DNA of 58,619 bases from a virus (Duplodnaviria > Caudoviricetes): positions 1 to 58,619 of the IMG/VR virus record IMGVR_UViG_3300036900_000065. One strand, 5' to 3'. The notes below the pieces were generated by a model. That model was not told the origin of the DNA, did not search any database, and saw only the letters and a program-made list of their open reading frames with translations. Made by a program: the position numbers and the translations under genes. Shown here in pieces: positions 1 through 46,071 of this stretch; position 1 is the first letter of the stretch, and every line of letters begins with the position of its first letter.

Positions 1-246
1 ACTTCGTCGTCTCGACCAGAGACATCGAGATGATCGAGAGCCTCGACCTTGTGATCGCAGGTGGGGACAAAGTGGTGGGGATCAACAAGATCGCCCACGA
101 TCAGATCGCATCGCACACCGAAATTCCCCGCGCCTATTACAACCGGATGCTCGCCGACGATCCGCGCCTCTTGGCGGCGAACGTCAATACATGGTTCCGC
201 AAGAACCCGGTCCCGCGCATGGTGCGCTGTCTCGACAACACCGCCC
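1..246. repeat. Terminal direct repeat, left copy (circular assembly overlap)
   Basis: 1-246 matches 58374-58619 except C119 vs T58492; the ORF reads through the junction. Confidence 0.95.
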
Positions 247-1016
247 GCGCTTTGCTCTCGGATCGCTATCGCCCGCTTGAGAATGAAGACCTCGCGGAGG
301 CGGTGCTGCCGCCGATCATGGAAATGGGCCTCGACGTGATGTCGAGCCAGATCACCGACCAGCGGCTCTACATCAAGGCGGTCGATCCCAAGGTGACGCG
401 CGAACTCGCGGCCATCGGCGGCAAGTTCGGGGATGGCGGGCACAACATCCTGCGGATGCTCGCGCCCGCGATCACGATCAGCAATTCGGAGGTCGGGCAG
501 GGCGCATTGGCGATCTTGGGCGGGGTCTATGACGGCTTCTGCTCCAACCTCGCCACCTTCGGCGAGCGCTCGACCCGCAAGTACCACGTCGGCTCGAAGC
601 ATGAGATCGCCGGGGAGGACACCTACGCCCTCCTGTCGGACGAGACGCGCCGCAAGAAAGATGTGGCGACATGGGCGGAGGTTGGCGACGTGGTGCGGGC
701 CGCCTTCGACCGCGCCCGCTTCGATAGCCTGTGCGAAAAAATCGAGGGCACGCAGAAGGACAAGATCGAGGGCGACCCCGTGCAGGTGGTGAAACTGACC
801 ACCTCGCGCTTCGGCCTGAACGAGAGCGCCGGGACTTCGATCCTCCGCCATCTGATCGAGGGCGGCGACCTGTCGCGTTTCGGATTGTACAACGCGATGA
901 CCCGCGCGGCGCAGGATGTCGAGGACTACGACGACGCGACCGCGATGGAGCGGCAGGGCGCGCAGATCATCGAACTGCCGAAGGCCGAGTGGAAGGCGCT
1001 GGCCGAAGCGGCCTGA
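1..1016 (+). CDS. DUF932-like phage protein, 3' part (true start at 58307 across the circular junction)
   Basis: ORF 30..1016 is in frame with MRTGLTLTQLAVEIERRAKAKDDF at 58307; motifs RALLSDRYRPLEN, ISNSEVGQG, CSN. Confidence 0.75.
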   Translation, partial: FVVSTRDIEMIESLDLVIAGGDKVVGINKIAHDQIASHTEIPRAYYNRMLADDPRLLAANVNTWFRKNPVPRMVRCLDNTARALLSDRYRPLENEDLAEAVLPPIMEMGLDVMSSQITDQRLYIKAVDPKVTRELAAIGGKFGDGGHNILRMLAPAITISNSEVGQGALAILGGVYDGFCSNLATFGERSTRKYHVGSKHEIAGEDTYALLSDETRRKKDVATWAEVGDVVRAAFDRARFDSLCEKIEGTQKDKIEGDPVQVVKLTTSRFGLNESAGTSILRHLIEGGDLSRFGLYNAMTRAAQDVEDYDDATAMERQGAQIIELPKAEWKALAEAA

Positions 1017-1022
1017 TCCGAA

Positions 1023-1103
1023 ATTGCCCGACCGGCGAACAGTGGCTTGCTCCAAGGTCGGGCGATGGGGGTGCGGGGATAGGGAGGCTCCGCACCCTTT
1101 TCT
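1023..1103 (+). ncRNA. Candidate anti-RBS small RNA / 3' UTR element (two stem-loops, the second terminator-like)
   Basis: 11-bp stem 1023-1033/1056-1066 with loop containing GGCTTGCTCC (1044-1053); second stem 1067-1078/1088-1099 followed by a T-rich tail; G-U pairs favour the + strand. Confidence 0.55.
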
Positions 1104-1160
1104 CTCCCCAATCAATCGGGGGAAGCAATCGCCCCGGAAAAATTTTCACAGGTGAGGCCG

Positions 1161-1373
1161 ATGCTTGACGAAAAACCACCGCATGTCGTGCGGCGATTGA
1201 ACATGCTGCGGGATCGCGCCCGCGCCCGCGCCACCGCCGACAGGACCGGCGCTTCCAATTCGGGCCGGATCATCGTCGCCTATTATCCGCGCTGCGCCCG
1301 CTATGGGTGGTGGGTCGATGGCGACCGCTGCACGATGGACCGCGCCGCCGCCGCCTTGATGGGTGAGCGATGA
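1161..1373 (+). CDS. Hypothetical protein
   Basis: ORF with GAGG upstream; stop overlaps the next start. Confidence 0.55.
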   Translation: MLDEKPPHVVRRLNMLRDRARARATADRTGASNSGRIIVAYYPRCARYGWWVDGDRCTMDRAAAALMGER

Positions 1374-1567
1374 GCGCGTTCGCCGTCTTTCTGCTCGCGC
1401 TGGCGTTCCTGTTCGTCATGCTGATCCGCTGGGCGTCACAGAGCATCCCGCGCGCCATCATCTTCGTCGCCCTTCTGTGCGCCTCGCCCTACGCGCTCGC
1501 TGTCGGCCTCGGGGTGCTGGCCGCAATCGAGGAAAGTCAACAGCACAAGGTGATGAGCAGGCGATGA
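1370..1567 (+). CDS. Small membrane protein
   Basis: Two hydrophobic segments; ATGA coupling on both sides. Confidence 0.6.
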   Translation: MSAFAVFLLALAFLFVMLIRWASQSIPRAIIFVALLCASPYALAVGLGVLAAIEESQQHKVMSRR

Positions 1568-2508
1568 AGATCATCAAGTGGAACGGGCAACCGATCAGCA
1601 AGGCGGGGTGGTATTCGGGCATCCCGCTTGAAGCCTATCATTCGGCGGGCGTCTGCGCGGGGCCTGCGGTGTCCTCGTCCGACCTGCGCACCTGCTGGTC
1701 GAAGTCCCCGGCGCACATGTACTCGAAGTGGGCCGAGAACCCGCGCCGCGAGGAGCAGGCGTCAACCCGCTCGATGGTGCTTGGCGGGGCCGCGCATCAC
1801 CTGTTTCTCGGCGAGGACGGCTTCAAGCTCAAGTTCATCGCCCAGCCGCCGACCTATCGCGACAAGGTGACGGCGGAGGAGAAGCCTTGGCACAACGGCG
1901 CAGGCTACTGCAAAAAGTGGAACGAGGGGCAGGCGGAGGCGGGCCGCATCATCGTCACCCTGAAGGAGCTCGACATCATCAAGCGCATGGCCGCGTCCCT
2001 GACCCTCGATCCGATGGTGCAGAACGGCATCTTGTACGGCGCGGTCGAATGCTCCGGGTTCTGGCAGGACAAGGAGACGGGCTTGTGGATCAAGGTGCGG
2101 CCCGATGTCATCCCGCCGACCGCAGGCGACTACGTGGACTTGAAGACGGCCTCGGAAGTCACCACCCCGGCGTTGCAGTACACGATCCGCTCATACGGCT
2201 ACCAGCAGCAGGGCGGCTTGGTGTGGGAGGCCGCCGAGACGCTGCGGCCCGACGTGCCCTTCGAGACATTCGTGCTGGTGTTCATCGAGACCGCGCCGCC
2301 CTATTGCGCCCGCTCGGTGCCGCTCGCAGCGGATGATCTGGCGCGGGGCCGCTTGATGAACCGCGCCATGCTGCGGCGGGTCAAGTCCTGCATCGAGGCG
2401 CGCCATTGGCCGGGGCCGGGAGAGGACGACCACAGCGAGATGCCGATCAGCAACGATGAGCGGGCGCGGATCGACGCCCGCCTCAAGGTCGAGGGGGTGC
2501 TGCAATGA
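1564..2508 (+). CDS. PD-(D/E)XK exonuclease, RecE/exonuclease VIII-like (DUF3799-like)
   Basis: YH..VSSSDL..SPAH, KVRPD, DLKT, YGYQQQ motifs; start MKIIKW at 1564. Confidence 0.85.
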   Translation: MKIIKWNGQPISKAGWYSGIPLEAYHSAGVCAGPAVSSSDLRTCWSKSPAHMYSKWAENPRREEQASTRSMVLGGAAHHLFLGEDGFKLKFIAQPPTYRDKVTAEEKPWHNGAGYCKKWNEGQAEAGRIIVTLKELDIIKRMAASLTLDPMVQNGILYGAVECSGFWQDKETGLWIKVRPDVIPPTAGDYVDLKTASEVTTPALQYTIRSYGYQQQGGLVWEAAETLRPDVPFETFVLVFIETAPPYCARSVPLAADDLARGRLMNRAMLRRVKSCIEARHWPGPGEDDHSEMPISNDERARIDARLKVEGVLQ

Positions 2509-3014
2509 GGGCGAAGCGGGGCGCGAACCCACGGCACTGGACGCCGCTGCAATTGCTGCCGCGCGAGCAGACCACCCGCCGCCCGGAGATCGTCGCCGAG
2601 ACGATGCGGCACTATGCCATCGGCGAGGACGAGGCGAAGGCGATGCTCGATCAGGAGGAGGCCAAGTGCCTCTTTTTCATCAACAATCTTTATCAGGTGT
2701 CGATGAGCCGCACGTTCGTCGATTGGTTCGGGGCTGAGAAGGACATCGTGCAACTCTGCATCCGCCGCCGCGACGGCGCGATGGTGTGGGATTGGCGGCA
2801 TTTCCAGCAGATCAAGAACGAACTGTGCGGCGAGGAATGCGAGGGCCTGCAATTGTTCCCCGCCGAGAGCCGCAAGGTCGATCAGGCGAACAAATGGCAC
2901 ATCTGGATCGTCGCGGACGGGACGCGAATGCCCTTCGGTTGGCGGGAGCGCGATGTGAAGGACGCGGACCCAGCCATGCAGCACGTCCCCGGATTGAGGC
3001 AGCGCCCGCTATGA
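2505..3014 (+). CDS. Conserved phage hypothetical protein
   Basis: WRHFQQIKNEL.G...EG.QLFPAESR.VD.AN.WHIW motif, common in phages; coupled to its neighbours. Confidence 0.75.
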   Translation: MRAKRGANPRHWTPLQLLPREQTTRRPEIVAETMRHYAIGEDEAKAMLDQEEAKCLFFINNLYQVSMSRTFVDWFGAEKDIVQLCIRRRDGAMVWDWRHFQQIKNELCGEECEGLQLFPAESRKVDQANKWHIWIVADGTRMPFGWRERDVKDADPAMQHVPGLRQRPL

Positions 3015-3388
3015 CCAAGCGCACCACCGCCGGGGACCGGTTCATCGGCAATCGCATCCGCGAGGCCCGCATCGCCAACGGGCAGTCGATGAAAGACCTC
3101 GCGGAACTGCTCGGCTGCTCATGGCAGCAGGTGCAGAAATACGAGGTCGGGTTCAATCGCGTGAACGGCGCGCGCTTCGATCTGCTCGTCACCGCGCTGC
3201 GCCGCCCGATGTCCTACTTTTTCCCCAACGCCACCGACGTTCGCTTCCATGCGGACCCCGCGCTCGACGCCATGATGGCGACCAAGGACGGGCAGGATTT
3301 GGCGCGGGCCTTTGCGCGCATCCCGGCGCAGCCAGACCGGCGGTTGGTGCGTGATCTCGCGATGCGTCTGGCGAAGGAGCGAGCGTGA
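3011..3388 (+). CDS. XRE-family helix-turn-helix regulator
   Basis: IGNRIREAR...SMKDLAELLGCSWQQVQKYEVGFNRV, typical alphaproteobacterial XRE. Confidence 0.9.
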   Translation: MTKRTTAGDRFIGNRIREARIANGQSMKDLAELLGCSWQQVQKYEVGFNRVNGARFDLLVTALRRPMSYFFPNATDVRFHADPALDAMMATKDGQDLARAFARIPAQPDRRLVRDLAMRLAKERA

Positions 3389-4410
3389 TGGTGAATGTGA
3401 ACGAAGTCGAACAGCGCACCGATCTGGTGAAGGCGTCGGCCATCGAAGTGGGGACGACCCTCGGCGGCGTCCTCGTATCCACGGTGGCCGATCTGGCGAA
3501 GATCAGCGATACGCTGTCGCGGGGCAAGATCGCGGTGCCCGCGCACTGCCGCAACGAGCCGGGGGTGTGCTTCGCCTTGGCGATGCAGGCGCTCGAATGG
3601 GGCCTGCCGATCATGTCGGTCATCACCAAGTCCTATCTGCCGCGCAATGCCGACCGCCTCGGATACGAGAGCCAGTTGATCCACGCGGTGATCGAGAAGA
3701 ACGCGCCGCTCAAGAACCGCCTGCGCTACGAGATCATCGGGGAGGGCGACGAGCGCCGCTGCAAGGTGTCGGGGACGTTCCGGGGCGAGGACAAGCCGCA
3801 TGAATACACCAGCGAGACGCTGGCGAAGATGCACCCCGGCCATGTCACCAAGACCATTGATGGCGAGCAGCGCAAGTTCGTGCGGGGATCGCAACTGTGG
3901 GACGACACCCCGGAGGTGCAGATGTTCTATTCGGCCTCGCGGACATGGGCGCGGCTGTTCGCCCCGGATGTGCTGCTCGGGGCCTACACGCCCGATGAGA
4001 TCGAGAAGATGGAGCCGGTCGATGTGACGCCGATCACGTCGCTGGCGAACCGATTGCGTGACGCCAAGATGGCGCACGCGGGTGAAGGCCGGGGGTTCGA
4101 CGCCGCGCATATCGCGCAGGCCGGGGCCTCGGTGATCGAAGGCGAGGCGCAAAGCCCTGCCGACAAGGAGGCGAGTGATGACGGAGAGCAGCGCGGTGTC
4201 GATGTCGCTGACGGTGACGGACGGGCAGCCCAGCCTGAAGATCGAGGCGATGACCCTCACGACGAGGGGCGAGGCGGACAGGCTGTCGGAGCAGGTGAAA
4301 CAGTACGGGGCGCACCTGCCGGTGCGGCTGTACGCGACGAAGGCCAAGCCGAAGGCGAAGGCCAGCAACCGGCCCGCCCCGCGCCCAAGCCTCGCCCGCG
4401 CCGCAAGTGA
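3385..4410 (+). CDS. recT: RecT-like single-strand annealing protein
   Basis: VPAHCR..PG.CFA.AMQA.EWG, LGYESQLIHAV, WARLFAPDVLLGAYTPDE; near the RecE-like gene. Confidence 0.8.
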   Translation: MMVNVNEVEQRTDLVKASAIEVGTTLGGVLVSTVADLAKISDTLSRGKIAVPAHCRNEPGVCFALAMQALEWGLPIMSVITKSYLPRNADRLGYESQLIHAVIEKNAPLKNRLRYEIIGEGDERRCKVSGTFRGEDKPHEYTSETLAKMHPGHVTKTIDGEQRKFVRGSQLWDDTPEVQMFYSASRTWARLFAPDVLLGAYTPDEIEKMEPVDVTPITSLANRLRDAKMAHAGEGRGFDAAHIAQAGASVIEGEAQSPADKEASDDGEQRGVDVADGDGRAAQPEDRGDDPHDEGRGGQAVGAGETVRGAPAGAAVRDEGQAEGEGQQPARPAPKPRPRRK

Positions 4411-4444
4411 AGGCGGTGCGACAACGGAGGCCGCGCGCGACTGA
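4178..4444 (+). CDS. Possible overprinted gene within the RecT C-terminal tail
   Basis: Perfect AAGGAGG at 4165-4171, ATG at 4178, open in the +1 frame. Confidence 0.45.
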   Translation: MTESSAVSMSLTVTDGQPSLKIEAMTLTTRGEADRLSEQVKQYGAHLPVRLYATKAKPKAKASNRPAPRPSLARAASEGGATTEAARD

Positions 4445-4730
4445 CCCCGCCTATCTCAAGTGGTTGCGGGCGCAGCGCTGCGCCTGCGGCTGCCTGCGGG
4501 GACCGCCATCGGACGCCGCGCATCTGCGCGCCTCATCGCCCGAATATGATAAGCCACTGACCGGCATGGGCGCGAAGCCAGACGATAAGTGGGCCTTGCC
4601 GCTCAACCACTGGTGCCATATGCGCCAGCACGCCCATTGGGGCGAACTGCAATGGTGGAAGGAGCGCGGCGTCGCCGACCCCTTCGCCCTCTGCATCGAG
4701 TACTATCAACGGTTTAAGGAGCATGGATGA
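4407..4730 (+). CDS. DUF968/HNH-like putative nuclease
   Basis: YLKWLRAQRCACGC...AAH...GMGAKPDD.WALPL..WCH..QH. Confidence 0.75.
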   Translation: MKAVRQRRPRATDPAYLKWLRAQRCACGCLRGPPSDAAHLRASSPEYDKPLTGMGAKPDDKWALPLNHWCHMRQHAHWGELQWWKERGVADPFALCIEYYQRFKEHG

Positions 4731-5014
4731 TGAACGAACAACCGCGACCGCCGACCGAGAGCTTGGAGCGGGAGATCGCCCGCGAGGCCGCGCTCGCCTA
4801 TATCCCGCCTCGCCCCGGCGTGAAGGAGGCGGACACCAAGACCTTCGCCAACCTTGCCGATGATGCGGCGACGGGGATCGCGGCGCTGCTATTGTCAACG
4901 GATCAGGCCGACAAGGCGTTGCGCCAGATCGAGGGCGCGGCGACGGCGATGCTCGAAAAGGCGGGGCTCGCCCGCAAGCTGATCGAAGCGGTTCGCGACA
5001 GCGCGCAAAAATGA
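4727..5014 (+). CDS. Hypothetical protein
   Basis: Coupled ORF with AGGAG RBS. Confidence 0.6.
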   Translation: MMNEQPRPPTESLEREIAREAALAYIPPRPGVKEADTKTFANLADDAATGIAALLLSTDQADKALRQIEGAATAMLEKAGLARKLIEAVRDSAQK

Positions 5015-5403
5015 CCACGCTCCGGGCGGTGCTGGTCGGCGCGGTCATCGCAGCGGTGATGATCGTCGCCGTCCGTCACCTCCCGGTCGAGGAGCAGAAG
5101 GCGCGGGCGGAACCGGCCATCAGCGAGCAGGCGCTGCGCGAGTACGGTCTGCGTCAGGCCGCCGTCGACGCCCTCAAGGCGAAGGTCGAGCCGCCGATGG
5201 TGCTGCCGACGCTGGAGCCATTCCAGCCCGCCCCGCCGCCGGTCGCTCCGCCGCCGCCGAAGATCGACCCGCCCGCGCCGCCGCCGACGACCATGGTGGC
5301 GATGAGGCCGGTGCAGCGATGGCCGGTCGAGCGTAGCCTCTGCTCGCGGTTCGGGATGCACAAGGTGCAGGTGGACAGGTGGCGATGGAGGTGCAAGCGA
5401 TGA
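5011..5403 (+). CDS. Membrane-anchored proline-rich protein
   Basis: N-terminal hydrophobic helix, poly-Pro linker, C-terminal C...WRWRC motif. Confidence 0.65.
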   Translation: MTTLRAVLVGAVIAAVMIVAVRHLPVEEQKARAEPAISEQALREYGLRQAAVDALKAKVEPPMVLPTLEPFQPAPPPVAPPPPKIDPPAPPPTTMVAMRPVQRWPVERSLCSRFGMHKVQVDRWRWRCKR

Positions 5404-5621
5404 TGCTGCCGCCCGACCTGCGACGGCTGCTCGACGGCTGCGGCCTGCCGTGGCGGATCGAGGAGGGCGCGCGGCATCGCAAGGTGATCGTGGATGGTCG
5501 GTTCATCTCGATCCTCCCCAAGTCGAACAGCAATCTGCGCAACGGGACGTGGCGAACGCACCGCAATTCGATGGCGCATATCCGACGAGGAATACGTGAA
5601 GTGATGGAGCAAGAACGATGA
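5400..5621 (+). CDS. Small basic protein, possibly HicA-like fold
   Basis: W.IEEG.RHRK...S...R...N....IRR pattern; coupled. Confidence 0.55.
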   Translation: MMLPPDLRRLLDGCGLPWRIEEGARHRKVIVDGRFISILPKSNSNLRNGTWRTHRNSMAHIRRGIREVMEQER

Positions 5622-5896
5622 GCAAGAAGCGATTGTCAAAGTCCACCTGCCTGCACTGCGTCTACTTCAAGGCGGCGAGACGCAAGTGGAAGGGCCGCAA
5701 GGAGCGCGGGGCCGCGCGGGTGGACCTGATCGTGAACGCGCTAAAGATTGTGCGCCACACCTTCACGGTGATGTCGGTGGAGGAGCAAACGCAATTCATC
5801 AAAGACATCAGCACGCCGCCGCCGTCTCTCGACACGGTGCTGGATGCGCTCAAGGAGGTCTTCGAGAAGGTCGGCGCAAAGGTGACGGAGCATTGA
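5618..5896 (+). CDS. Hypothetical protein (CxxC)
   Basis: GGAGCAAG RBS at 5606; coupled. Confidence 0.6.
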   Translation: MSKKRLSKSTCLHCVYFKAARRKWKGRKERGAARVDLIVNALKIVRHTFTVMSVEEQTQFIKDISTPPPSLDTVLDALKEVFEKVGAKVTEH

Positions 5897-5985
5897 CCGA
5901 TGAGAGACTTCGCGCCCCAGCCGGTGCCCGTGCGGCCTGCCTTGGGACGACTGCCCGCTGAAAGACTGGATAAGAGGAGCAAGCG

Positions 5986-6120
5986 ATGACGACATGGGAT
6001 TGGCTGGGAATTGCAGCCGGGGCGTTCGCCCTGATCTGCGTTTGCCTGCCCTGCAAATACGACCCCGCGATCCGGTGGAAGGAACGGCTCGAAGGCTGGC
6101 CAAAGCGAGATGACCGATGA
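5986..6120 (+). CDS. 44-aa membrane peptide (not in the ORF track)
   Basis: GGAGCAAGC at 5976; MTTWDWLGIAAGAFALICVCLPCKYDP...; stop overlaps the next ATG. Confidence 0.6.
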   Translation: MTTWDWLGIAAGAFALICVCLPCKYDPAIRWKERLEGWPKRDDR

Positions 6121-6344
6121 TCGGCGGGCTGATCGAGCGCTGGGCGCTCGCCTACCTCAAGCGCCGGGGCATGGTGGTGCTGCCGCGCGCCTTCGTCGGC
6201 ATGGCGCTGGGGTATTCGCAGGCGGTGAAGCTGGAGGGCGACAACGACATCAATGTCTACCGCGTCGAGGTGCCCGCCTTCGCCAAGCCGATCATCCTCA
6301 ACCATTCGATGTTGATTGATCGGTCCCGCGTAGGATCGCATTAG
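6117..6344 (+). CDS. Hypothetical protein, last gene of the left early block
   Basis: Coupled ORF; converges with the late transcript. Confidence 0.55.
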   Translation: MIGGLIERWALAYLKRRGMVVLPRAFVGMALGYSQAVKLEGDNDINVYRVEVPAFAKPIILNHSMLIDRSRVGSH

Positions 6345-6458
6345 CGGGCCACTGGCGGCCCTTCCGGCCCCGGAGGGCTGTACCCTACCCGCCGCAGGCC
6401 GGGAACCGGCCCCACGGCGGCGGAACGGGGCGGCAATCGACCGCCCCGCCCGATGGGA

Positions 6459-6998
6459 TTAGCGGCGCTGGGGCGTAGGCGTCGGGGCCGAACCGCCCGG
6501 AGCGATGGGATGCGACGGATGCGGCTGACCGGGAGGCAGGCCCTGATCCGGCCCGACCGGATAGGACTTGACCACCCAATCCTGCCCCGGCTTGTGCACC
6601 GCGACGACGACTTGGCTCTCCAATTCCGGCGGCAGCGGCGGGGCGGGCGGCTTGGGCCAGACCTCGGGCGGCACCGGCTGCCCGCCGGGAGGCAACCCCT
6701 GATCGGGATGGCCGGGGCTGGGCCAGATGCCCGGAGGCTGGCTGGGCAGCCCGTGGTCGGGATGGCCGGGATGGTAGATCGGCTGCGACGGATGGCCGCC
6801 GCCGGGAGGCAGGCCCTGATCGGGATAGCTCGGCGCGCCGCCCCAGATGCCCGGAGGGCGACCGCCCGGAGCGATGGGGTGGCCGGGGTGCGGCTGCGGG
6901 CCGGGGCCGCCGATGTCAACATAGGGAGGCGCGCCGCCCCAGATGCCGAGACCGCCGTCATCGAGCAATGTGATTATCGCGAACACGCTTCTTGGCAT
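6459..6998 (-). CDS. Pro/Gly/His-rich repeat protein
   Basis: GGGAGGA RBS; repeats PD(Q/H)GLP x4, GIW x3, HPIAPGG x2. Confidence 0.75.
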   Translation of the reverse strand: MPRSVFAIITLLDDGGLGIWGGAPPYVDIGGPGPQPHPGHPIAPGGRPPGIWGGAPSYPDQGLPPGGGHPSQPIYHPGHPDHGLPSQPPGIWPSPGHPDQGLPPGGQPVPPEVWPKPPAPPLPPELESQVVVAVHKPGQDWVVKSYPVGPDQGLPPGQPHPSHPIAPGGSAPTPTPQRR

Positions 6999-10484: not shown

Positions 10485-12129
10485 TGGCCGCCTCCAGCCG
10501 CGCCGTCAGCTCCGCGACCTGACCGTCGAGATGCTTGACCGCGTTGGCCAGCGCCGCGATCAGCGGCATGAGCTCAATCGCGGGCTGGTCGCCGCCGCGC
10601 ACCGCATGGGGCAACGCCTCCTGCATTTCCTGCGCGACGAAGCCCAGTTCCTCGCGCGGCTCGACCGCCCATCCGGGGTGATCGGCGGGCGGCTCCGGGT
10701 TGACCCGCTGATAGCGGCGAGGGCGCATCAGCCGCACCGCCTCGATCCCGTCCGGCGCGTCCTGAATGTCGGCCTTGAGCGCCGCGTCCGAGTTCTGCGC
10801 CAGCGTGCCCTTGATGGTGAGGTTGCCGCCGCCGACCAGAGACATCAGGATGGCGTCCGTGTAGTCCTGCCATGTGCGCGCTCCACTGGACCGCTGGAAC
10901 ATGTACTTCCACGACGAGGCCGTGGCGCTGCCCTGCTCGCCGATGCCGAAATAATTGCCGTCGCTGTAAAACGAGCTGGCGTTGGTGAGGGTGATGCCCT
11001 GTCCAGACATGGTGTTAATGGCGCCGCCGAACGTCGCGGCCCCGGTGCCGCGCGCGATCTGCATCGCCGCCGGGTTAATCAGCGCGCCGCTGTCGTCGTA
11101 ACGCTGGATATAAAAATCCGACCCGGCGTTCGCCCCCGTCTCGGCGGCGGAATTGCCAAGCGTCACCCGCCAGCGCAGCGCGCCGCCCGTCATGCCCGCA
11201 AGGCCCCGGTTGACGCTGCCCGCCCCGTCGAGCGCCACGGTATAGCCGAACGCCCCGCTGCCGGAGGTCCCGGCGAACGTCACGGGGCCGGTCACACGCC
11301 CCCCATCGAGCGGCAGATAGCCGGAAAGGTCGGGCTGCGGGGTCGCAATCACCCATTGCGTCGAAGTGCCGTCGTTGTAGCGCGCATAGAGAAGGCCGGT
11401 GTCGCTCTCGAACCAGAGCGCGCCGTCCGCCGCGCCCGCAGGCGGCGTGTCGGACACCAGCAGGGTCGCGGTGCCCGCCGCGCCCTGAGGGCCGGTGTCG
11501 CCCTTGTCGCCCTTCGGTCCCTGCACGCCCTGCACGCCCTGCGGCCCTTGCGCCCCTTGCGGCCCGACCAGCGACACGCCCCCCGGCCATGCGCTGCCCG
11601 CCTTCGGGCCGAAGATGAAATGGGTCGTGGTGTTGATGTAGAAGTCGCCGTCCTTGCCCTGCGCCGTAGGGTCCGATGGGCCATAGAGGACGGTGTTCCC
11701 GTCCACGCCGTCCGTGCCTCTCGGCCCCGGCGGCCCCTGCAGGCCGATGGGCCCCTGCACGCCTTGGACGCCCTGCGCCCCCTGCGGCCCGATCAGCGAC
11801 GCCCCGGCTGGCCAGACGCCGCTCAGCTTCGGGCCGAACATGAAATGCGTGGTGGTGTTGACATAGAAGTCGCCGTTGACGCCGACCGCGTTCAGCGGAT
11901 CGCTCGCGCCATACAGCACCGAATTGCCGCGCGGCCCCGCAGGGCCGGTGTCGCCGGGAGGTCCGGGGACGATGGACGCGGGGCCGGGAGGTCCGGGAGG
12001 TCCGGGAGGCCCCTGCTGCATCGTCTGGATGATCTCGACCTCATCGTCGAAGATCACGATGGTGCTGTCGTCGCTCGACGCGGCGCTCACGTTGTCCGAA
12101 TTGTCGATGTCAACTTCGTTGAAGGTCAT
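10477..12129 (-). CDS. Collagen-like tail fibre with C-terminal intramolecular chaperone (peptidase S74-like)
   Basis: G-X-Y repeats, duplicated GDFY.NTTTHF.FGPK units, SDAALK...LGFVAQE and a coiled-coil end. Confidence 0.85.
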   Translation of the reverse strand: MTFNEVDIDNSDNVSAASSDDSTIVIFDDEVEIIQTMQQGPPGPPGPPGPASIVPGPPGDTGPAGPRGNSVLYGASDPLNAVGVNGDFYVNTTTHFMFGPKLSGVWPAGASLIGPQGAQGVQGVQGPIGLQGPPGPRGTDGVDGNTVLYGPSDPTAQGKDGDFYINTTTHFIFGPKAGSAWPGGVSLVGPQGAQGPQGVQGVQGPKGDKGDTGPQGAAGTATLLVSDTPPAGAADGALWFESDTGLLYARYNDGTSTQWVIATPQPDLSGYLPLDGGRVTGPVTFAGTSGSGAFGYTVALDGAGSVNRGLAGMTGGALRWRVTLGNSAAETGANAGSDFYIQRYDDSGALINPAAMQIARGTGAATFGGAINTMSGQGITLTNASSFYSDGNYFGIGEQGSATASSWKYMFQRSSGARTWQDYTDAILMSLVGGGNLTIKGTLAQNSDAALKADIQDAPDGIEAVRLMRPRRYQRVNPEPPADHPGWAVEPREELGFVAQEMQEALPHAVRGGDQPAIELMPLIAALANAVKHLDGQVAELTARLEAANA

Positions 12130-12475: not shown

Positions 12476-13132
12476 TTACCTCGTCGGCTTGAGCCAGTTG
12501 GCGCGCGCCGCCGTGATCGGCGCGGCATAGGCCGCGTCGATCTCCTCCAGCGTCGTCATCGTGCCCGCATCAATCGCCGCACGGTTGTCCGACGATATGC
12601 TGAAACAGTTGTTGATGTGGGTGAGCAGGTCGTCGTTCATCGCCTGCATCCCGGTGGCGTCGAGGTCGATGATGGTCCCGTCCGCGCAATGCCAAGGCGT
12701 CACCACGGTCGGCTCGACCTGCGCCGCGCTGAACACCCCCGTGATCTTGGCCTGCGCGCGGTCGTCGGTCTTGATCGGGAAGCCCGCGCTGGTGACGAGG
12801 CCGCCCTGTTCTTTCCGCCAGCGCGCGTCGTCGTTGTACGCCTTGAGCTGCGACGGCGTGTAGCTGTCGGGCGCGGGCTGGATGAAACTCGCGGCGTTGA
12901 ACAGCCACGGCCTGACCAGCGGATATTTCTGCAGCACTTCGGCCAGATCGGCCTCGCTCGGGATTGGCGTGGGCGACCGGCTGAGCGACCACTCGACATA
13001 GGCGGGATCGCTGACCGGAACCATCGTGTTCGTCCGGCTCTGATAGACCTGAGACGCGCCCTCGCCGATCATCCAAAAGTGATCGAAGGGGTTGATCGCC
13101 ATCGCCGTCGCCACTCTGGGAATGTCAGACAT
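12476..13132 (-). CDS. DUF4376-like tail fibre assembly protein
   Basis: ARWRKEQGG...TDDRAQAKI...W.CADG....LDA..M; follows the fibre gene. Confidence 0.7.
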   Translation of the reverse strand: MSDIPRVATAMAINPFDHFWMIGEGASQVYQSRTNTMVPVSDPAYVEWSLSRSPTPIPSEADLAEVLQKYPLVRPWLFNAASFIQPAPDSYTPSQLKAYNDDARWRKEQGGLVTSAGFPIKTDDRAQAKITGVFSAAQVEPTVVTPWHCADGTIIDLDATGMQAMNDDLLTHINNCFSISSDNRAAIDAGTMTTLEEIDAAYAAPITAARANWLKPTR

Positions 13133-35933: not shown

Positions 35934-35963
35934 TGGGCTTCGTAATTCTTTCGGAGCAAGCCA

Positions 35964-37001
35964 ATGCCTCTCACTTTCGGCACCGAGTTCGAATGCTTCA
36001 TCCCGCAAGGGACGACGCAGGCGATGCTCGCCGCCGCCATCAACGCTCGCCTTATCGCCCCGGCGACCTGCGCGGTGGAAGGATACAACCACAACGCCCG
36101 CCCTCATTGGAAGATCGTAACCGATGGCTCGCTGGGCGACTATTCGCGCGGGGTTGAGATCGTCTCCCCGATCCTCGAAGGCGAGGAAGGCATTGCGCAG
36201 ATGCGCCTTGTTTGCGAGGCCCTGACCGATTTCGGTTGCACGGTCAACCAGAGCGCGGGCTTCCACGTTCATGTAGGCGCGCGCGGCGAGGGCCTCGGCT
36301 TCTTCAAGAAGCTGGTGCGCCTTTACCAGACCTATGAGCGGGTGATCGACGGCATGATGCCGGTGTCTCGCCGCGCCTCGTCAAACACCTATTGCCGCTC
36401 GCTGGCGGGCGCAGCGCCTTCCGCGATCAGCGCCGCCCTCTCGGTTGGCGATCTGGCGCGCGTACTCACCCACGCCAGCCGCGCGATGGCCGACCGCTAC
36501 CACAAGGTCAACATCACCGCCTATTCGCGCCACTCGACGGTCGAGTTCCGGCAGCATTCGGGAACGGTCGATGCGACCAAGGCGGAGAACTGGGTGCGCC
36601 TTTGCCTCAAGATGGTCGAGACCGCCAAGCGGCCCGACGTGATCTTCGAGACGGCGACCGGCGCGGCCCCGCGCAACACGGCCCGCTATGGCTCGAAGCG
36701 CCACGCCATCATCGAGATGATTATGCGCGAGAACGGCGCGACCCGTACCGAGATCGTAGCAGCCACCAATTGGCCCTCGGTCTCGATTGCGCAGATTGCG
36801 GCCTCCTCGGGCCTCAACATTCTCACGACCCGCACGGGCCGCGAGACACGCTACTCGCTCAATGCGGTGGCGACCACCCCCACCCACCACGACGTTTCGG
36901 TGGATGGGTTCTGCACCTTGATCGGTGCGACCGATGCGGAGCGCGCCTACGTGCAGCGGCGCACCGCGAACCTCGGCGGCCCCGTAGCTTGGACCGCCTA
37001 A
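35964..37001 (+). CDS. Amidoligase (COOH-NH2 ligase type 2) with DUF3489-like wHTH insertion
   Basis: TFGTEFE, WKIVTDGSL, EIVSP.L, AGFHVHVG, RY.KVN, TVEFRQH. Confidence 0.9.
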   Translation: MPLTFGTEFECFIPQGTTQAMLAAAINARLIAPATCAVEGYNHNARPHWKIVTDGSLGDYSRGVEIVSPILEGEEGIAQMRLVCEALTDFGCTVNQSAGFHVHVGARGEGLGFFKKLVRLYQTYERVIDGMMPVSRRASSNTYCRSLAGAAPSAISAALSVGDLARVLTHASRAMADRYHKVNITAYSRHSTVEFRQHSGTVDATKAENWVRLCLKMVETAKRPDVIFETATGAAPRNTARYGSKRHAIIEMIMRENGATRTEIVAATNWPSVSIAQIAASSGLNILTTRTGRETRYSLNAVATTPTHHDVSVDGFCTLIGATDAERAYVQRRTANLGGPVAWTA

Positions 37002-37040
37002 TTGAGAAGGATGGATGCAATGCGACACGAAGATAAGACG

Positions 37041-37229
37041 ATGACGACGACCCCGGATCAATCGCTCGTAACATGGCGCGCGACGATGGGGTTCAATCAG
37101 CGCGAGGCGGCGGAAGCCTTGGGATGCTCCCCCGCCGATCTGGCCGATTGGGAGCGCGGCGCGGCCACCACGCCCCGCTTCATCAGGCTGGCGATGGCCG
37201 CGCTCGCTCTCGGCATCGAGGCCGAATGA
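37041..37229 (+). CDS. Small HTH protein (XRE/Cro-like)
   Basis: WR..MG.NQREAAEALGCS......WERG. Confidence 0.8.
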   Translation: MTTTPDQSLVTWRATMGFNQREAAEALGCSPADLADWERGAATTPRFIRLAMAALALGIEAE

Positions 37230-37276
37230 CCGCCCTACGCCCCGGAGGTCGCAAGCCTTCGGGGTCGAGGGGTCAG
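37227..37276 (+). repeat. Intergenic hairpin element, copy 1
   Basis: 3' arm CGGGGTCGAGGGGTCAG. Confidence 0.6.
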
Positions 37277-37288
37277 AAGGAGCAAGCC

Positions 37289-37918
37289 ATGTCACTTTAT
37301 TTCGCCTACGGATCGAACTTGAGCAAGGTGCAGATGCACTGCCGCTGCCCCGATGCGGTGCCGGTCGGATCGCTCACCCTCGAAGACTGGACGCTGGTGT
37401 TCCGCGCGGTGGCCGACATCGCGCCGTCGCCGGGAGACACCGTGCAGGGCGCGGTCTGGAAACTCTCGCCATCCGACGAGGCCAACCTCGACCAGTACGA
37501 GGGGGTGCGGAGCGGGATGTACCGCAAGGTCTATATTCCCATCGAGCCTTATGACTTCGCCGGGGATCATCACGAGGACATGCTGGTCTACGTGATGAAC
37601 TCGACCGGCATCATGCCGCCGACCATCTCCTACCTGCGCACGATCCGGGACGGCTATCGCGACTTCTCCCTGCCGATGGCCGCGCTCGACGATGCGGTGG
37701 AGCGATCCCACGATAACAAGGCCCCATCGCATGTCGAGCGGCAGCGCCGGATGCGGTCTGGCCGACTGCCGCTGGCCGCGCGGCCCAGCGCGATCCGGGC
37801 CGCGCAGGAAGCCGCCGCCAAGGCGGAGCGCGAGAAGAAGGCTCGCCCCCTGAGCAAGAAGGCCAAGCGGCGCGCCAAGGCGAAGGCCAAGGCCCGACGC
37901 GGGATTGGTTCGTACTGA
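37289..37918 (+). CDS. Gamma-glutamylcyclotransferase (AIG2-like) 1
   Basis: YFAYGSNL...QM..RCP, LD.YEG...Y; basic C-terminal tail. Confidence 0.9.
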   Translation: MSLYFAYGSNLSKVQMHCRCPDAVPVGSLTLEDWTLVFRAVADIAPSPGDTVQGAVWKLSPSDEANLDQYEGVRSGMYRKVYIPIEPYDFAGDHHEDMLVYVMNSTGIMPPTISYLRTIRDGYRDFSLPMAALDDAVERSHDNKAPSHVERQRRMRSGRLPLAARPSAIRAAQEAAAKAEREKKARPLSKKAKRRAKAKAKARRGIGSY

Positions 37919-37959
37919 CGCCCCCGACGCCCCGCCATCGCGCGGGGCTGAGGGGTCAG
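37915..37959 (+). repeat. Intergenic hairpin element, copy 2
   Basis: CTGAC..CCCC..GCCCCG / CGGGGCTGAGGGGTCAG. Confidence 0.6.
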
Positions 37960-38000
37960 AAGGGGCCGCTGATCGACCCCGCAAATCAGGAGCAAGGCGG

Positions 38001-38381
38001 ATGAAAATTTTCGTGTACGGAACCCTGCAGCGGGGACGCCGCAACCACCGCATCCTTGAGGCCGCGACGTTCATCGGCAGGGCGGTGACGGTGCGCAGGT
38101 TCGGGATGACCGACGTGGGCTTCCCGTTCATGCTGCCGTGGCAGGAGATCGCGCGCGTAGCTGGCGAGCTATTCGACATCGGCGACGACGCCGACATTCT
38201 CGCGGCGCTCGACCGCCTCGAAGGCGAAGGCCGGATGTACGACCGCGTGCAAGGCTTCGTTGAATGCAAAGGCCGACGCCATCTCGCGAGCTTCTATGTG
38301 AAGCGCCCGACCGGAAGGCCAGCGGGCCGCGAGGTGCCGGTCAACGAGCGCGGCCTCTTGGAATGGAGGGCCGCATCATGA
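38001..38381 (+). CDS. Gamma-glutamylcyclotransferase (AIG2/YtfP-like) 2
   Basis: IFVYGTLQRG..NH, V.GELF, LDRLEG...Y.R. Confidence 0.9.
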   Translation: MKIFVYGTLQRGRRNHRILEAATFIGRAVTVRRFGMTDVGFPFMLPWQEIARVAGELFDIGDDADILAALDRLEGEGRMYDRVQGFVECKGRRHLASFYVKRPTGRPAGREVPVNERGLLEWRAAS

Positions 38382-38584
38382 CGCGGCACGCCGACGCCAC
38401 CATCCGCCGATTGCGGGGTCAGCGCGGCCTCGCCGCCGAGATCGCGCGAGAATGCGGGATCAATCGGGCGGCGGTCTACCAATGGAGCAAGGTGCCCGCG
38501 CGGCACGCCCTCCGGGTCGCCCGCCTTCTCGACCTCGATGTACGGCGCGTTCGCCCTGACATTTTCGCCCCGCCGCGCGACTGA
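38378..38584 (+). CDS. Cro/YdaS-like HTH regulator
   Basis: IARECGINRAAVYQW.KVP...RPDIF; paralogous to 57953-58168. Confidence 0.8.
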   Translation: MTRHADATIRRLRGQRGLAAEIARECGINRAAVYQWSKVPARHALRVARLLDLDVRRVRPDIFAPPRD

Positions 38585-38590
38585 GAATGA

Positions 38591-38632
38591 TGATAAGGCC
38601 CCCTTGCCACTTTGGCCGCTCTCGGCCATGTG
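38591..38632 (+). promoter_or_regulatory. Early promoter with AAG-N5-CTT operator
   Basis: TGATAAG-GCCCC-CTTGCCA; TTGCCA-N17-CATGTG. Confidence 0.65.
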
Positions 38633-38671
38633 GAGGGGACGGGCATATCCCGCCCGCATAGGAGCAAGCCG

Positions 38672-39484
38672 ATGGAACTTTCTTTCACCAAGCACAACTC
38701 GCAATGGGTGATCCGCGCGGACGCCCATATCGCGCCCGGAACCACAATCGACGTTCCCAAGCGCGGCGGCGGATCGAAGCCGGTCACGATTGGCCCGCAG
38801 GTCGGGACCAAGTCTGGCGACTATCTTTTCGCCATCGCCACCCAGCCCCGCGCGCCCGCCGCCCCGACGCAGGCGGTCGGCGACCTCTCGGGCATCCTCG
38901 CCATTTTCAACACCGCCCGCCGCCATCTCAAGCACCCCTCGATTGTACTCGACGGGTTCCGGGTGGCGCGGGCCGGGGATAGCGCGCGCGAGCCGGGATC
39001 GCTGACGATCACCAGCGTGGAGCGCACCCATACCGACCGCTTCGGCAACGACGCCCGCGACTGGTATGGCCGGGTGTCGCTCGACGGCACGTTCCAGCCC
39101 GCGCGCCAAGCGCCCGCCGATCTCGGCGAGAAGCTGCGCGCCTTCGCCGCCGACCCCGCCGGGGTTGCCGCCGCCTATGGCCACCTGCACGGGCGCTGCT
39201 GCTTCTGCAACACCGCCCTGACCGACGAGCGATCCACCTCGGTCGGCTATGGCCCGATCTGCGCCGACCACTTCGGGTTGCCATGGGGCGCTCGCCCCGC
39301 GCCGACCCGCCGCGCGGCCTCGGCTGGCCCGCTCAACGACATCGAGGCCGCAGCCGACCGGCGCTTCGACGAGGCCGACGAGCGCGCCATGCAGGAGATG
39401 GAGGCGCGGGCGGATCGCGAGGGCACGATCCGCGACGAGCGCAACAAGCACCGCGCCCGCGCCATGATGGAGCGCCGCGCCTAA
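38672..39484 (+). CDS. DUF6011-like Zn-finger protein
   Basis: GRCCFC...LTDERS...GYGPICA. Confidence 0.8.
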   Translation: MELSFTKHNSQWVIRADAHIAPGTTIDVPKRGGGSKPVTIGPQVGTKSGDYLFAIATQPRAPAAPTQAVGDLSGILAIFNTARRHLKHPSIVLDGFRVARAGDSAREPGSLTITSVERTHTDRFGNDARDWYGRVSLDGTFQPARQAPADLGEKLRAFAADPAGVAAAYGHLHGRCCFCNTALTDERSTSVGYGPICADHFGLPWGARPAPTRRAASAGPLNDIEAAADRRFDEADERAMQEMEARADREGTIRDERNKHRARAMMERRA

Positions 39485-39487
39485 CCC

Positions 39488-39545
39488 ACGCCCCACTGGC
39501 GGCTTCCGCCCCGGCTCCGCGAGGAGACCGGGGCTGGGGCGTCAG
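39488..39545 (+). repeat. Intergenic hairpin element, copy 3
   Basis: ACGCCCCA..GCCCCGG / CGGGGCTGGGGCGTCAG; GCGA tetraloop. Confidence 0.6.
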
Positions 39546-39592
39546 GAACGGGCATGGCGCCCTTCCACATGCTCATAAGGAGCCAGACGACC

Positions 39593-39889
39593 ATGATGCT
39601 TATCCTCACCAAGATCGACCAGCGCGCCTATCGCGAGGACGAGGGCGATGCCCCGCGCCTCGTCAAGGTCGCGATCCAGTCGGAGCGCATCCGCTGCTTC
39701 AACCCCCGCCGCGAGGGCGCGGGCACCCGCCTGACCTTCGCCGATGGCGGCGGCTTCGCGGTTCAGGAGGACGGCGCGGCCATCCTCGCCATGCTCGGCG
39801 AGACAGCCGGGGCGCGCGAATATGCGACGGCCCCGGTCGCTCCGATCACCGTGGCAGCGCCCGCCCCGGAAGGCGAGGCCCTCAACTAA
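39593..39889 (+). CDS. Hypothetical protein
   Basis: AAGGAG RBS. Confidence 0.7.
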   Translation: MMLILTKIDQRAYREDEGDAPRLVKVAIQSERIRCFNPRREGAGTRLTFADGGGFAVQEDGAAILAMLGETAGAREYATAPVAPITVAAPAPEGEALN

Positions 39890-39951
39890 AGCCATCGCCC
39901 GCCGCGCATCCCTTTCGGGGTGCGCGGCCCGACCGTTTGGGAGCAAGCCGA

Positions 39952-40554
39952 ATGAGCCAGCACTACGTCCTCGACCTCCAATGCCCGCGATGCGGGGCGC
40001 GGGGCGAGGCCATCGCGACCAAGCGCGACCTCCCGCCGCCGATCCCCTGCGAGGCCTGCGCCGCCGCCGACGAACCCGCCGAGATGGGGATCGTCAAGGT
40101 GACGGTGCGGGCCGGAAATGACGAAGGAGCAAAGCAAATGAGATATGTTCTTATCAATCCGGTCCTGCGCACCGCCACGGCGGGCGACTACGCCACCCTC
40201 CAAGACGCGGAGGTTGCGGCGGGCCTCGACCCCAACAAGGTCGATCACGGGATGCTCACCCGCAGCATCGGTTACGTGGTTTATGAGTTCGGGCTGTTCG
40301 AGCCGCCCGCCCAACAGCACTACTTCGCCATGGGCCGCTCGCTGATCGCGGGCGCGGCGGTCCTCTACGGCGTCGACGCGTGGGGCGAGAGCGTCAACCT
40401 GCACCGCTCGACCATTCCCGACATCCGATGGTTCCTCGGCGCGAACGATGTCGAGGCCGCGATTGAGGCGGGCGAGATCATCCGCCCGACCACCTCCATC
40501 AATGGCGAAGTGACGTGGCGCTGGCCGGACGCCCACCCATGGAGGCCGCGATGA
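39952..40554 (+). CDS. Zn-ribbon protein in frame with a second gene starting at 40138
   Basis: CPRC..CEAC; two RBS/ATG pairs (39940/39952 and 40126/40138). Confidence 0.65.
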   Translation: MSQHYVLDLQCPRCGARGEAIATKRDLPPPIPCEACAAADEPAEMGIVKVTVRAGNDEGAKQMRYVLINPVLRTATAGDYATLQDAEVAAGLDPNKVDHGMLTRSIGYVVYEFGLFEPPAQQHYFAMGRSLIAGAAVLYGVDAWGESVNLHRSTIPDIRWFLGANDVEAAIEAGEIIRPTTSINGEVTWRWPDAHPWRPR

Positions 40555-41797: not shown

Positions 41798-41800
41798 GCC

Positions 41801-41860
41801 CAGCCCCTCCCCCAAGCAGCCCCGGCGCGCCCGCCAAGGTCGCCGGGGCTGGGGCGTCGG
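41801..41860 (+). repeat. Intergenic hairpin element, copy 4
   Basis: AGCCCCGGCG / CGCCGGGGCT; 3' arm CGGGGCTGGGGCGTCGG. Confidence 0.6.
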
Positions 41861-41890
41861 AACCATCCCGGTTCCGATTGGAGCAAGCGA

Positions 41891-46070: not shown

Positions 46071-46071
46071 C

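Follow-up and report, generated by a model that had tools for sequence, protein, structure and literature searches.

Hairpin loops complementary to a start-associated sequence suggest an antisense switch for tagged genes in a soil phage

Why should a hairpin just downstream of a phage gene carry in its loop the exact complement of the ribosome-binding site (RBS) that precedes a set of other genes of the same phage? The question is raised by positions 1023–1105 of the IMG/VR virus record IMGVR_UViG_3300036900_000065 (Caudoviricetes), a stretch of 58,619 nt that was analysed over its full length and is referred to below as the window. There, a long stem-loop (hairpin R) and a GC-rich hairpin follow the stop codon of the gene that we call gene 1, and an original prediction made from the letters of the sequence had interpreted this element as a small RNA (sRNA) whose loop is antisense to an RBS shared by the early genes. 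Our analysis showed that the shared RBS behaves as a start-associated sequence (SAS), GGAGCAAG, and that its complement, CUUGCUCC (the anti-SAS), is also present in a second intergenic hairpin of the window (hairpin L), which is retained in related genomes. The presence of two loops exactly complementary to the shared RBS suggests an antisense switch that controls the tagged genes together. To the reading in which the anti-SAS loops pair with SAS-bearing start regions and repress their translation we assign a probability of roughly 50%; transcription and processing of the loops, their action in trans, pairing in vivo and the resulting repression are what we infer from the sequence.

The SAS consists of the Shine-Dalgarno core GGAG and the extension CAAG, often followed by C. 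It occurs in 12 copies on the plus strand and in one on the minus strand, the latter being the loop of hairpin R, and in 10 of the 12 plus-strand copies GGAG is located 6–8 nt before the ATG of an open reading frame (ORF) of 44–345 aa (Table 1). The 9-mer GGAGCAAGC is present in 9 copies against 0.79 expected, a number that was reached in none of 100 shuffles. All matches to the R loop that had been listed in the original prediction (11 nt at 35953, 37279 and 41878; 10 nt at 38661 and 39940; 9 nt at 5976 and 58296) were recovered, and to these we added the 9-nt copy at 48206 and the 8-nt copies at 5606, 37989, 38484 and 53414, which it had omitted. The regulon had been described as genome-wide, which overstates the case: SAS-bearing start regions make up 10 of the 34 on the plus strand and 0 of the 57 on the minus strand. 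The tagged genes are non-structural (gene 1, the amidoligase gene, two GGACT-like genes, the DUF6011 gene and small ORFs) and the minus-strand starts, those of the structural block at 6459–35424 included, are unmatched. In the metagenome-assembled genome (MAG) that contains an identical contig, 13 copies of GGAGCAAG were found in this contig and 28 in the other ~3.9 Mb, with 144 for the reversed control pattern. By these counts, GGAGCAAG behaves as a SAS that is real and phage-specific. The universal 16S 3' tail (…CACCUCCUU), a general tail that may not be that of the host, would offer the CAAG extension no partner; a search for a 16S gene in the MAG, which is assigned to the Casimicrobiaceae, found none. 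As a separate observation, the plus-strand copy at 38484–38491 lies inside a predicted ORF (38378–38584), with no convincing gene start and no sense-strand hairpin.

The number of start regions with a complement of at least 8 nt to loop R is 11 of 34 on the plus strand (the 10 SAS starts and that at 4566, which matches another part of the loop than the SAS starts do) and 0 of 57 on the minus strand, whereas shuffled loops (n=5000) averaged 0.28 and never exceeded 7. Loop R is also the top plus-strand window by number of complementary start regions (11); since the all-window null includes windows that are antisense to minus-strand starts, it serves only for this ranking. Any reverse copy of the tag would, however, by itself produce a count of this kind. 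On the strand of the flanking genes, CUUGCUCC occurs at two sites only, 1046 (plus strand) and 48213 (minus strand). At each of them lies an intergenic hairpin, which begins 6–9 nt past a stop codon and is succeeded by a strong hairpin. It seems unlikely that the two conserved, complementary 8-mers are unrelated, given that one of them marks start regions and the other is found in the loops of sense-strand hairpins with strong hairpins behind them, and RNA–RNA pairing over the Shine-Dalgarno sequence would be the simplest connection. Positions 1023–1105 are probably one of two anti-SAS modules, with R as the second: from the comparisons given below, L appears to be the conserved module and R a lineage-specific second copy, in which the anti-SAS is less exposed and the second hairpin has gained a U-tract.

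Hairpin L, which was found by scanning the genome for the anti-SAS in hairpin loops, occupies a 106-nt gap between two minus-strand genes and starts 9 nt past the stop of the leftward gene 48236–48553 (p105). Its predicted fold on the transcribed strand (48226–48194) is GCGCGCA-U-G-UC-UGC-[UUGCUCC]-GCA-U-C-UGCGCGC, in which 7 of the 8 anti-SAS bases are unpaired with a predicted probability of at least 0.99; the 116-nt region containing hairpin L and the adjoining GC hairpin has a z-score of -2.49. The module, including the strong second hairpin, is conserved after the stop codon of the p105 homologue in two related genomes, G004 and G005, despite protein identities of only 40% and 29%, respectively; no other p105 homologues were found among the genomes G001–G006 or in the search of related loci. 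In the three-way alignment of this intergenic region, TGCTTGCTCC is the sole long invariant block. Within the hairpin UGCUUGCUCC is invariant and the stems differ: when folded singly, all three sequences exhibit an apical 7-nt loop, UUGCUCC or CUUGCUC, on stems of UGC/GCA, CUG/CAG and AGAUG/CAUCU. Downstream of L, the window has genes other than those of G004/G005, and in 7 loci related to the downstream gene of the window (31–54% identity) neither the hairpin nor an SAS was present (0/7). A scan of viral contigs with the L pattern returned 46 loci, among which G004 and G005 are the only relatives and most others are the antisense of ordinary RBSs. The plus-strand reading of the L copy is followed by no start codon that is conserved in G004 or G005, and a small plus-strand ORF at 48219 (17 aa) was rejected, being conserved in neither genome.

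In case of hairpin R, the stem, the loop and the terminator-like hairpin are present as originally described. The stem is formed by 1023–1033 (ATTGCCCGACC) with 1056–1066 (GGTCGGGCGAT) and encloses GGCGAACAGUGGCUUGCUCCAA, with a nominal loop of 22 nt (1034–1055, GGCGAACAGTGGCTTGCTCCAA); folded alone, 1021–1068 reaches -23.8 kcal/mol (z = -3.30), and none of 200 shuffles was as stable. Downstream of the terminator-like hairpin stands TTTTCTCT (UUUUCUCU), and it is plausible that this second hairpin acts as a terminator; a simple terminator scan missed it because its loop has 9 nt and the scan took loops of 3–8 nt only. The minus-strand copy at 1053 (GGAGCAAGCCACTGTTCGCC) has no ATG, GTG or TTG within RBS distance, in line with the original remark that it is not simply an RBS, and a minus-strand gene beginning in the R loop was rejected, having no start codon and an ORF that would overlap gene 1. 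Gene 1 does precede the hairpin; as a "first early gene", however, it starts at 58307 and spans the ends of the record. Contigs from the sequencing runs X1–X4 were compared over 600–1700: the X2 contig, which crosses this stretch, and the X3 contig (677–1073) have no listed differences inside hairpin R, and a divergent X1 contig stops at 1017 with a loose end of 46 letters, the first 30 of which are readable.

In the mechanism that we propose, each module would present a CUUGCUCC stem-loop and then a strong GC hairpin on the transcribed strand just past a stop codon, and the RNA would act either while part of the operon transcripts or in the form of 3'-end fragments, which the strong hairpin would stabilise. 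Its loop, in which CUUG may represent the YUNR U-turn motif known from rapidly pairing antisense loops, would contact the SAS of target mRNAs, and a duplex of 8–11 bp would form over the Shine-Dalgarno sequence and the spacer. This duplex would block 30S binding, and the SAS-tagged genes would be repressed jointly, possibly together with Rho polarity or decay; since gene 1 itself has an SAS, module R would provide negative feedback. Predicted duplex energies are -12.2 kcal/mol for 8 bp, -15.6 for 9 bp and -20.5 for 11 bp, with predicted opening costs (kcal/mol) of 2.4 for L, 4.5 for R and 1.9–5.8 for the targets, which makes anti-SAS/SAS pairing workable in these models. Ranking by RNAduplex was uninformative, since none of the 91 start regions of this GC-rich genome scored above -12 kcal/mol and the scores of shuffled loops were nearly as good; exact complement counts were used in its place.

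A parallel to this arrangement exists in mycobacteriophages of Cluster K, in which 13-bp SASs precede 11–19 non-structural genes. In the parts of PMC3203893 drawn on here, the role of these sequences is left open: its authors consider either an RNA or a protein as the factor acting at the SAS, prefer DNA-binding proteins in the case of the adjacent ESAS repeats, and note a single reverse SAS copy as a feature. SASs have since been catalogued in about 190 Cluster K genomes, with a role described as still unverified in 2025 in the corresponding parts of PMC12699233; PMC11373665, likewise used in part, is a further source on them. Among the literature searched, we found no paper that proposes an antisense partner for the SAS or a reverse SAS in a hairpin loop, although the supplementary figures and tables of PMC3203893 and PMC12699233 may list reverse sites.

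In 13 sampled Cluster K genomes, we found 13–18 copies of the forward SAS (GGGATAGGAGCCC) in each, and in 5 of the 13 exactly one reverse copy (within one mismatch). In Anaya, the reverse copy is located at 59870–59882 of the record (12871–12883 of our locus L145). This part of the early right arm is a non-coding gap of 385 nt flanked by gp96 and gp97, and its transcribed strand folds into a nested hairpin whose 10-nt loop, CCUCCUAUCC, is formed by the reverse copy. Conservation of the hairpin region extends to 150 Cluster K records, in some of which an ORF is annotated across it. Covariation supports the hairpin: over the Anaya locus and its homologues (L146–L157), 88.3% of cells are paired compared to 32–50% in slid controls, and 6 pairs are changed on both sides, which none of 500 shuffles matched. 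The geometry hence recurs in an unrelated phage group, where it is likewise confined to a subclade. Both motifs are asymmetric, combine a Shine-Dalgarno core with an extension, and stand a few nucleotides before an ATG in one orientation per gene; both are rare in the host (here: the MAG), conserved across related phages and placed before unrelated non-structural genes; and K1 phages likewise keep one reverse copy away from gene starts in a conserved hairpin loop. They differ in sequence, GGGATAGGAGCCC (13 nt) against GGAGCAAG(C) (8–9 nt), as well as in host phylum and phage lineage. An ESAS-like inverted repeat was not seen in the soil phage, although no search was aimed at one. On this comparison, the soil-phage motif is an analogue of the Cluster K SAS and not a member.

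The history of tag and hairpin was followed in relatives of gene 1 from viral, genome and metagenome contigs, which comprise 24 distinct loci with 55–100% protein identity. A stem of at least 10 bp that begins at most 14 nt past the gene-1 stop is present in 16 of the 24, and the post-gene-1 hairpin is therefore a family trait; its conservation is based on single-sequence folds and a stem finder, not on covariation, and MAFFT with RNAalifold on nine such hairpins gave 0 pairs from an unsuccessful alignment. Stem and loop sequences are all different, the loops of the closer relatives have 13–29 nt, and the homologous second hairpin of the relatives is without a U-tract. The tag is present in G004 in 10 copies (8 with ATG or GTG within 2–4 nt, a ninth with ATG at 8 nt, one in the L hairpin) and in G005 in 8 copies (6 with ATG within 2–6 nt, one in the L hairpin), and the minus-strand SAS copies of both genomes likewise precede ATG codons. 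All 3 tag-bearing genomes available carry the anti-tag in a loop. Eight relatives without SAS have few copies and none at gene starts (3 in G001, 5 in G006, 8 in G003 and 1–2 each in G008–G012), and the RBS consensus of G001 itself (GGAG..GACC) has no evident anti-hairpin. As relatives keep the tag without the anti-SAS in their post-gene-1 hairpin, the RBS tag appears to be old and R young. Scans of viral contigs gave 18 matches to the R-loop pattern, all unrelated, and one, also unrelated, to the motif of the X1 loose end.

Several observations weigh against antisense control of the tagged genes. The SAS tag is not unique, since GGAGCAAGC-type RBS contexts turn up sporadically in unrelated phages. 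In hairpin R the anti-SAS is about half buried: UUGCU (1047–1051) is predicted to pair with GGCGA (1034–1038) and has unpaired probabilities of 0.04–0.15, 5 of the 8 anti-SAS bases are predicted to be paired and the mean unpaired probability over the anti-SAS is 0.40, contrary to the open 22-nt loop that had been assumed. The anti-SAS is found in the post-gene-1 hairpin of only 2 of the 24 loci, the window and L045 (gene-1 protein 99% identical), where hairpin R is the same except for one extra A in the loop. A variant with 2 changes, UUUGCCCC, is present in L046 (81%), whilst L011/G004 (85%), L024/G005 (75%), L047 (75%) and L027 (56%) keep the GGAGCAAG RBS of gene 1 with unrelated loops; the test put forward with the original prediction, conservation of the loop or its co-variation with the RBS in relatives, accordingly fails for R. 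Of 200 Markov-simulated genomes, 45.5% contained, on one strand, a match to a position weight matrix of the 10 sites at least as good as that of R, and 16% of shuffled R loops have a complement of at least 11 nt somewhere on the plus strand. Hairpin R alone is thus weak evidence and compatible with chance, and the core idea of a loop antisense to the shared RBS motif is supported mostly via hairpin L. The conservation of L in turn concerns three genomes, and the short stems of G004 and G005 are not significant (z-scores of 0.31 and 0.15, respectively). The GC hairpin after L is followed by AUAUCC and by no U-tract, so that a discrete sRNA is not implied there. A consensus scan of 1–6500 for sigma-70-like promoters found none, a weak test given that the consensus of the host may differ, and the sequencing runs listed as containing the phage are 15 of DNA type and 0 of RNA. 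Finally, in 7 of the 13 Cluster K genomes the homologous hairpin carries a different loop or a deletion, yet 13–17 copies of the forward SAS (counted with up to one mismatch) are kept, and so the anti-SAS loop is not needed for the SAS to persist; an eighth, SgtBeansprout, has kept the loop sequence with changed flanks.

The strongest alternative is one that we nevertheless regard as unlikely: hairpin R would be an ordinary 3'-end structure, a stabilising or terminating double hairpin, whose RBS complementarity arose by loop drift in one lineage, with L functional or not. Such stems after gene 1 in 16 of 24 loci with sequences that are all different, an anti-SAS confined to the window and its 99%-identical relative, the chance of 0.455 for one reverse copy and the half-paired state of the anti-SAS are what this explanation would lead one to expect, as is the finding that the loops of G001, G004 and G005 have no unusual complementarity inside their own genomes. 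It does not explain why both sense-strand copies of the anti-SAS belong to the same type of module, the 13–29-nt loops of the closer relatives are not typical of simple terminators, and the conservation of L indicates that this phage group selects the sequence in a loop.

That the anti-SAS hairpins act only in cis, by 5'–3' closure or autoregulation of gene 1 or as marks for processing or termination, with no regulon in trans, seems improbable to us. R and the gene-1 SAS share a transcript and are complementary over 9 nt, both modules are inside operons with no promoter detected in the 1–6500 scan, and the hairpin after L is without a U-tract, all of which would suit such a role. Against it stands the leftward operon, in which the window has no gene with an SAS (matches at 0 of the 57 minus-strand start regions): L, the conserved copy, would have no target in cis, and the RBSs of the downstream genes (GGTGAGG, AAGGAGG) match only CUCC. 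Slightly less probable again is the idea that the reverse copies are recombination relics at gene-start junctions, inverted or orphaned RBS cassettes without function. The genomes are mosaic, as is visible in the different genes downstream of L in the window and in G004/G005 and in two small ORFs (1161–1567) downstream of R in the window only, and the minus-strand reading at R resembles an SAS followed by CTG in place of ATG. A relic would be expected to decay, yet the 10-mer of L is invariant while its surroundings have diverged and the neighbouring protein is at 29–40% identity; R shares no similarity beyond about 13 nt with any SAS site, and the placement in loops would be left unexplained. 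The least probable alternative, that GGAGCAAG is a duplex-DNA site bound by a phage protein in either orientation with the anti copies as further sites, draws on the phage specificity of the motif, its presence at many gene starts and the position of the authors of PMC3203893, who in the part used here leave RNA or protein open for the SAS and favour DNA-binding proteins for ESAS, and is countered by the fixed Shine-Dalgarno distance and orientation (including the minus-strand genes of G004/G005), which point to the RNA level, by the hairpin-loop context and compensatory stem changes at non-start copies, and by stem G:U pairs that form only in the sense-strand RNA.

Antisense pairing of the anti-SAS loops with SAS-tagged mRNAs can be compared to several known systems. 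Among these, the C4 RNA of P1/P7 and the CI RNA of P4 are phage hairpin loops that pair with short sites, one of the P1 sites covering an RBS; they are processed from the operon that they regulate and block downstream translation or transcription. These RNAs share with the present modules a phage-encoded hairpin loop complementary to short sites, but confer immunity by acting within one operon, at one site or two, as opposed to about 10 dispersed gene starts here, and C4 has paired a'/b' loops for two sites in one leader where each module here has a single anti-SAS. The originally suggested check for C4 or c4-a1b1 gave no match in the window or in either hairpin region: an Rfam scan of the whole window at gathering thresholds, on both strands, returned 0 matches, and E-value scans of 1–2610, 900–1250 and 47900–48400 returned no C4, with other matches at or below about half of their gathering scores. 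In the C-rich-loop sRNAs of the RsaE/RoxS type of Firmicutes, too, hairpin loops ahead of a terminator expose an anti-Shine-Dalgarno sequence, and their pairing with Shine-Dalgarno sequences represses several start regions; these sRNAs are host-encoded and recognise generic G-rich Shine-Dalgarno sequences, whereas the loops here match the phage-private extension CAAG, for which reason the regulon would be set by the tag and not by Shine-Dalgarno strength. In T4, RegA is likewise a single phage factor that shuts off translation of many early mRNAs through a shared feature of their start regions, although it is a protein acting on AU-rich sites around the AUG and not, as proposed here, an RNA acting by Watson-Crick pairing. 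The layout of the enterobacterial 3'-UTR-derived sRNAs (UTR, untranslated region) CpxQ, DapZ and SroC, in which the intrinsic terminator of a protein-coding gene is immediately preceded by the stem-loop that bears the seed, is found at R, where the stem-loop is directly 5' of a GC hairpin with the U-tract UUUUCUCU; module L differs in being located between two genes and without a U-tract.

A broader proposal, which we put forward tentatively and consider rather doubtful, is that SASs are address tags and that phages using them also encode an anti-tag loop in early operons that pairs with each tagged start region and switches the whole set, an arrangement that would have arisen independently at least twice (soil group, GGAGCAAG/CUUGCUCC; Cluster K1, GGGATAGGAGCCC/CCUCCUAUCC). 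If true, it would answer what SASs are for, a question left open since 2011. If the pairing itself is real, the phage would have a regulon defined by a private RBS extension and controlled by an 8-nt RNA loop, an RNA counterpart of T4 RegA with a target set much wider than that of the C4/CI immunity RNAs, and start-associated sequences would gain a first testable mechanism. Cluster K phages are genetic and therapeutic tools, for which knowledge of early-gene control has practical value. Should the pairing not be real, the SAS-like tag of this phage group still stands.

Table 1. Positions of the tag copies, anti-tag modules and main genome regions in the window (hairpins and gene functions are predictions).
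Feature	Position	Strand	Remarks
SAS	58296–58303	+	gene 1 (ATG 58307); 9-nt match
SAS	5606–5613	+	ATG 5618, 92-aa ORF; 8-nt copy
SAS	5976–5983	+	ATG 5986, 44-aa ORF; 9-nt match
SAS	35953–35960	+	ATG 35964, Amidoligase_2 protein; 11-nt complement to loop R
SAS	37279–37286	+	ATG 37289, GGACT/AIG2-like protein; 11-nt complement to loop R
SAS	37989–37996	+	ATG 38001, gamma-glutamyl cyclotransferase-like protein; 8-nt copy
SAS	38661–38668	+	ATG 38672, DUF6011 protein; 10-nt match
SAS	39940–39947	+	ATG 39952, 200-aa ORF; 10-nt match
SAS	41880–41887	+	ATG 41891, 164-aa ORF; 11-nt complement UUGGAGCAAGC to loop R, from 41878
SAS	53414–53421	+	ATG 53425, phrog_5931; 8-nt copy
Hairpin R	1023–1066	+	11-bp stem with one G:U; starts 6 nt past gene-1 stop
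Anti-SAS CUUGCUCC in hairpin R	1046–1053	+	complement of GGAGCAAG; with flanks pairs 8–11 nt of SAS start regions
GC-rich terminator-like hairpin	1067–1105 (with tail)	+	hairpin 1067–1099, core stem 1069–1078/1088–1097, 9-nt loop AUAGGGAGG
Hairpin L	48194–48226	-	outer stem GCGCGCA/UGCGCGC, inner stem UGC/GCA, 7-nt apical loop UUGCUCC
Anti-SAS CUUGCUCC in hairpin L	48206–48213	-	plus-strand reading is a 9-nt GGAGCAAG-type copy, not a gene start
15-bp GC hairpin	48151–48186	-	directly 3' of hairpin L; then RBS AAGGAGG and ATG 48129 of next leftward gene
p105 gene	48236–48553	-	105 aa; no Pfam family above cut-off; hairpin L in 3' flank
Gene 1, 5' part	58307–58619	+	phrog_1362; crosses terminal overlap into 1–1016
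Gene 1, 3' part	3–1016	+	stop at 1016
Plus-strand block	58307–6344	+	gene 1, exonuclease VIII-like PDDEXK protein, RecT
Structural block	6459–35875	-	from gene map
Accessory block	35964–44534	+	Amidoligase_2, two GGACT-like proteins, DUF6011
Replication block	44566–58168	mainly -	Mom-like protein, helicase, Toprim primase, Cro/YdaS-like HTH protein

The record is labelled linear and 72% complete. It has a terminal direct repeat of 246 nt (1–246 and 58374–58619, one mismatch), and because of this duplication the unique genome would be ~58,373 nt long; it is probably complete and either circularly permuted or terminally redundant. The gene-1 locus is identical on a 58.5-kb contig binned in the Casimicrobiaceae MAG, which is uncertain as the phage host. 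DNA similarity to deposited phages is negligible, with a coverage of only 3–4% over an endolysin gene. The gene map is rough, being based on GC3 (GC content at third codon positions), and no tRNA or tmRNA genes were found. The phage is not without repressor-like proteins, as it encodes a 71-aa helix-turn-helix (HTH) protein (57953–58168, minus strand) with sub-threshold Cro/YdaS-like Pfam matches, divergent from gene 1 over a gap of 138 nt and a candidate early regulator; the originally noted absence of a recognisable CI repressor is therefore only partly borne out.

Between gene 1 and the exonuclease gene, several relatives (L012 at 3509–3700, L013, L046, L048 and L024) contain a structured spacer of ~180 nt with 3–4 hairpins, of which the last is terminator-like. 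The first loops of one spacer subgroup share GCUGGYGCG..UGCUAGU..GGCGGG, and the only Rfam match in these spacer loci was a sub-threshold one to BjrC80 in L046; the spacer may be an undescribed structured RNA. The R-terminator segment GGGGAUAGGGAGGCU...CUUUUCUCUCCCC (1079–1109) resembles the last hairpin of these relatives, for example GGGGGAGGGAGGCU...CUUCUCUCCCC in L013, and the short spacer of the window may have been derived from their multi-hairpin region by deletion; a competing alternative pairing of this segment is possible. In the window, hairpin R is separated from the exonuclease gene by the two small ORFs at 1161–1567, which overlap and encode 70 and 65 aa without family matches. 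They are absent in L045, L011, L012, L013 and L024, where the exonuclease gene directly follows the hairpins, and they look like a recent insertion.

Another intergenic element that recurs upstream of SAS-tagged genes consists of a GC hairpin (e.g. ccccgccatcgcgcgggg) and then GAGGGGTCAGAA, with 2 copies in the window (37267–37278 and 37950–37961) and 4 in reoriented G004 (54542, 56223, 57413 and 58336); it may be a terminator, a processing site or a promoter module. The SAS-tagged cluster at 35964–39484, which comprises the Amidoligase_2 gene (with a DUF3489-like segment), two gamma-glutamyl cyclotransferase-like (GGACT/AIG2) genes and the DUF6011 gene, resembles phage cassettes for peptide or metabolite modification. 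A Mom-family protein encoded at 44566–45351 on the minus strand (E = 8.8e-54) suggests DNA base modification. Finally, a 124-nt direct repeat (11528–11651 and 11753–11876, 81% identity, 225-nt spacing) is present within a minus-strand structural gene of 537 aa.

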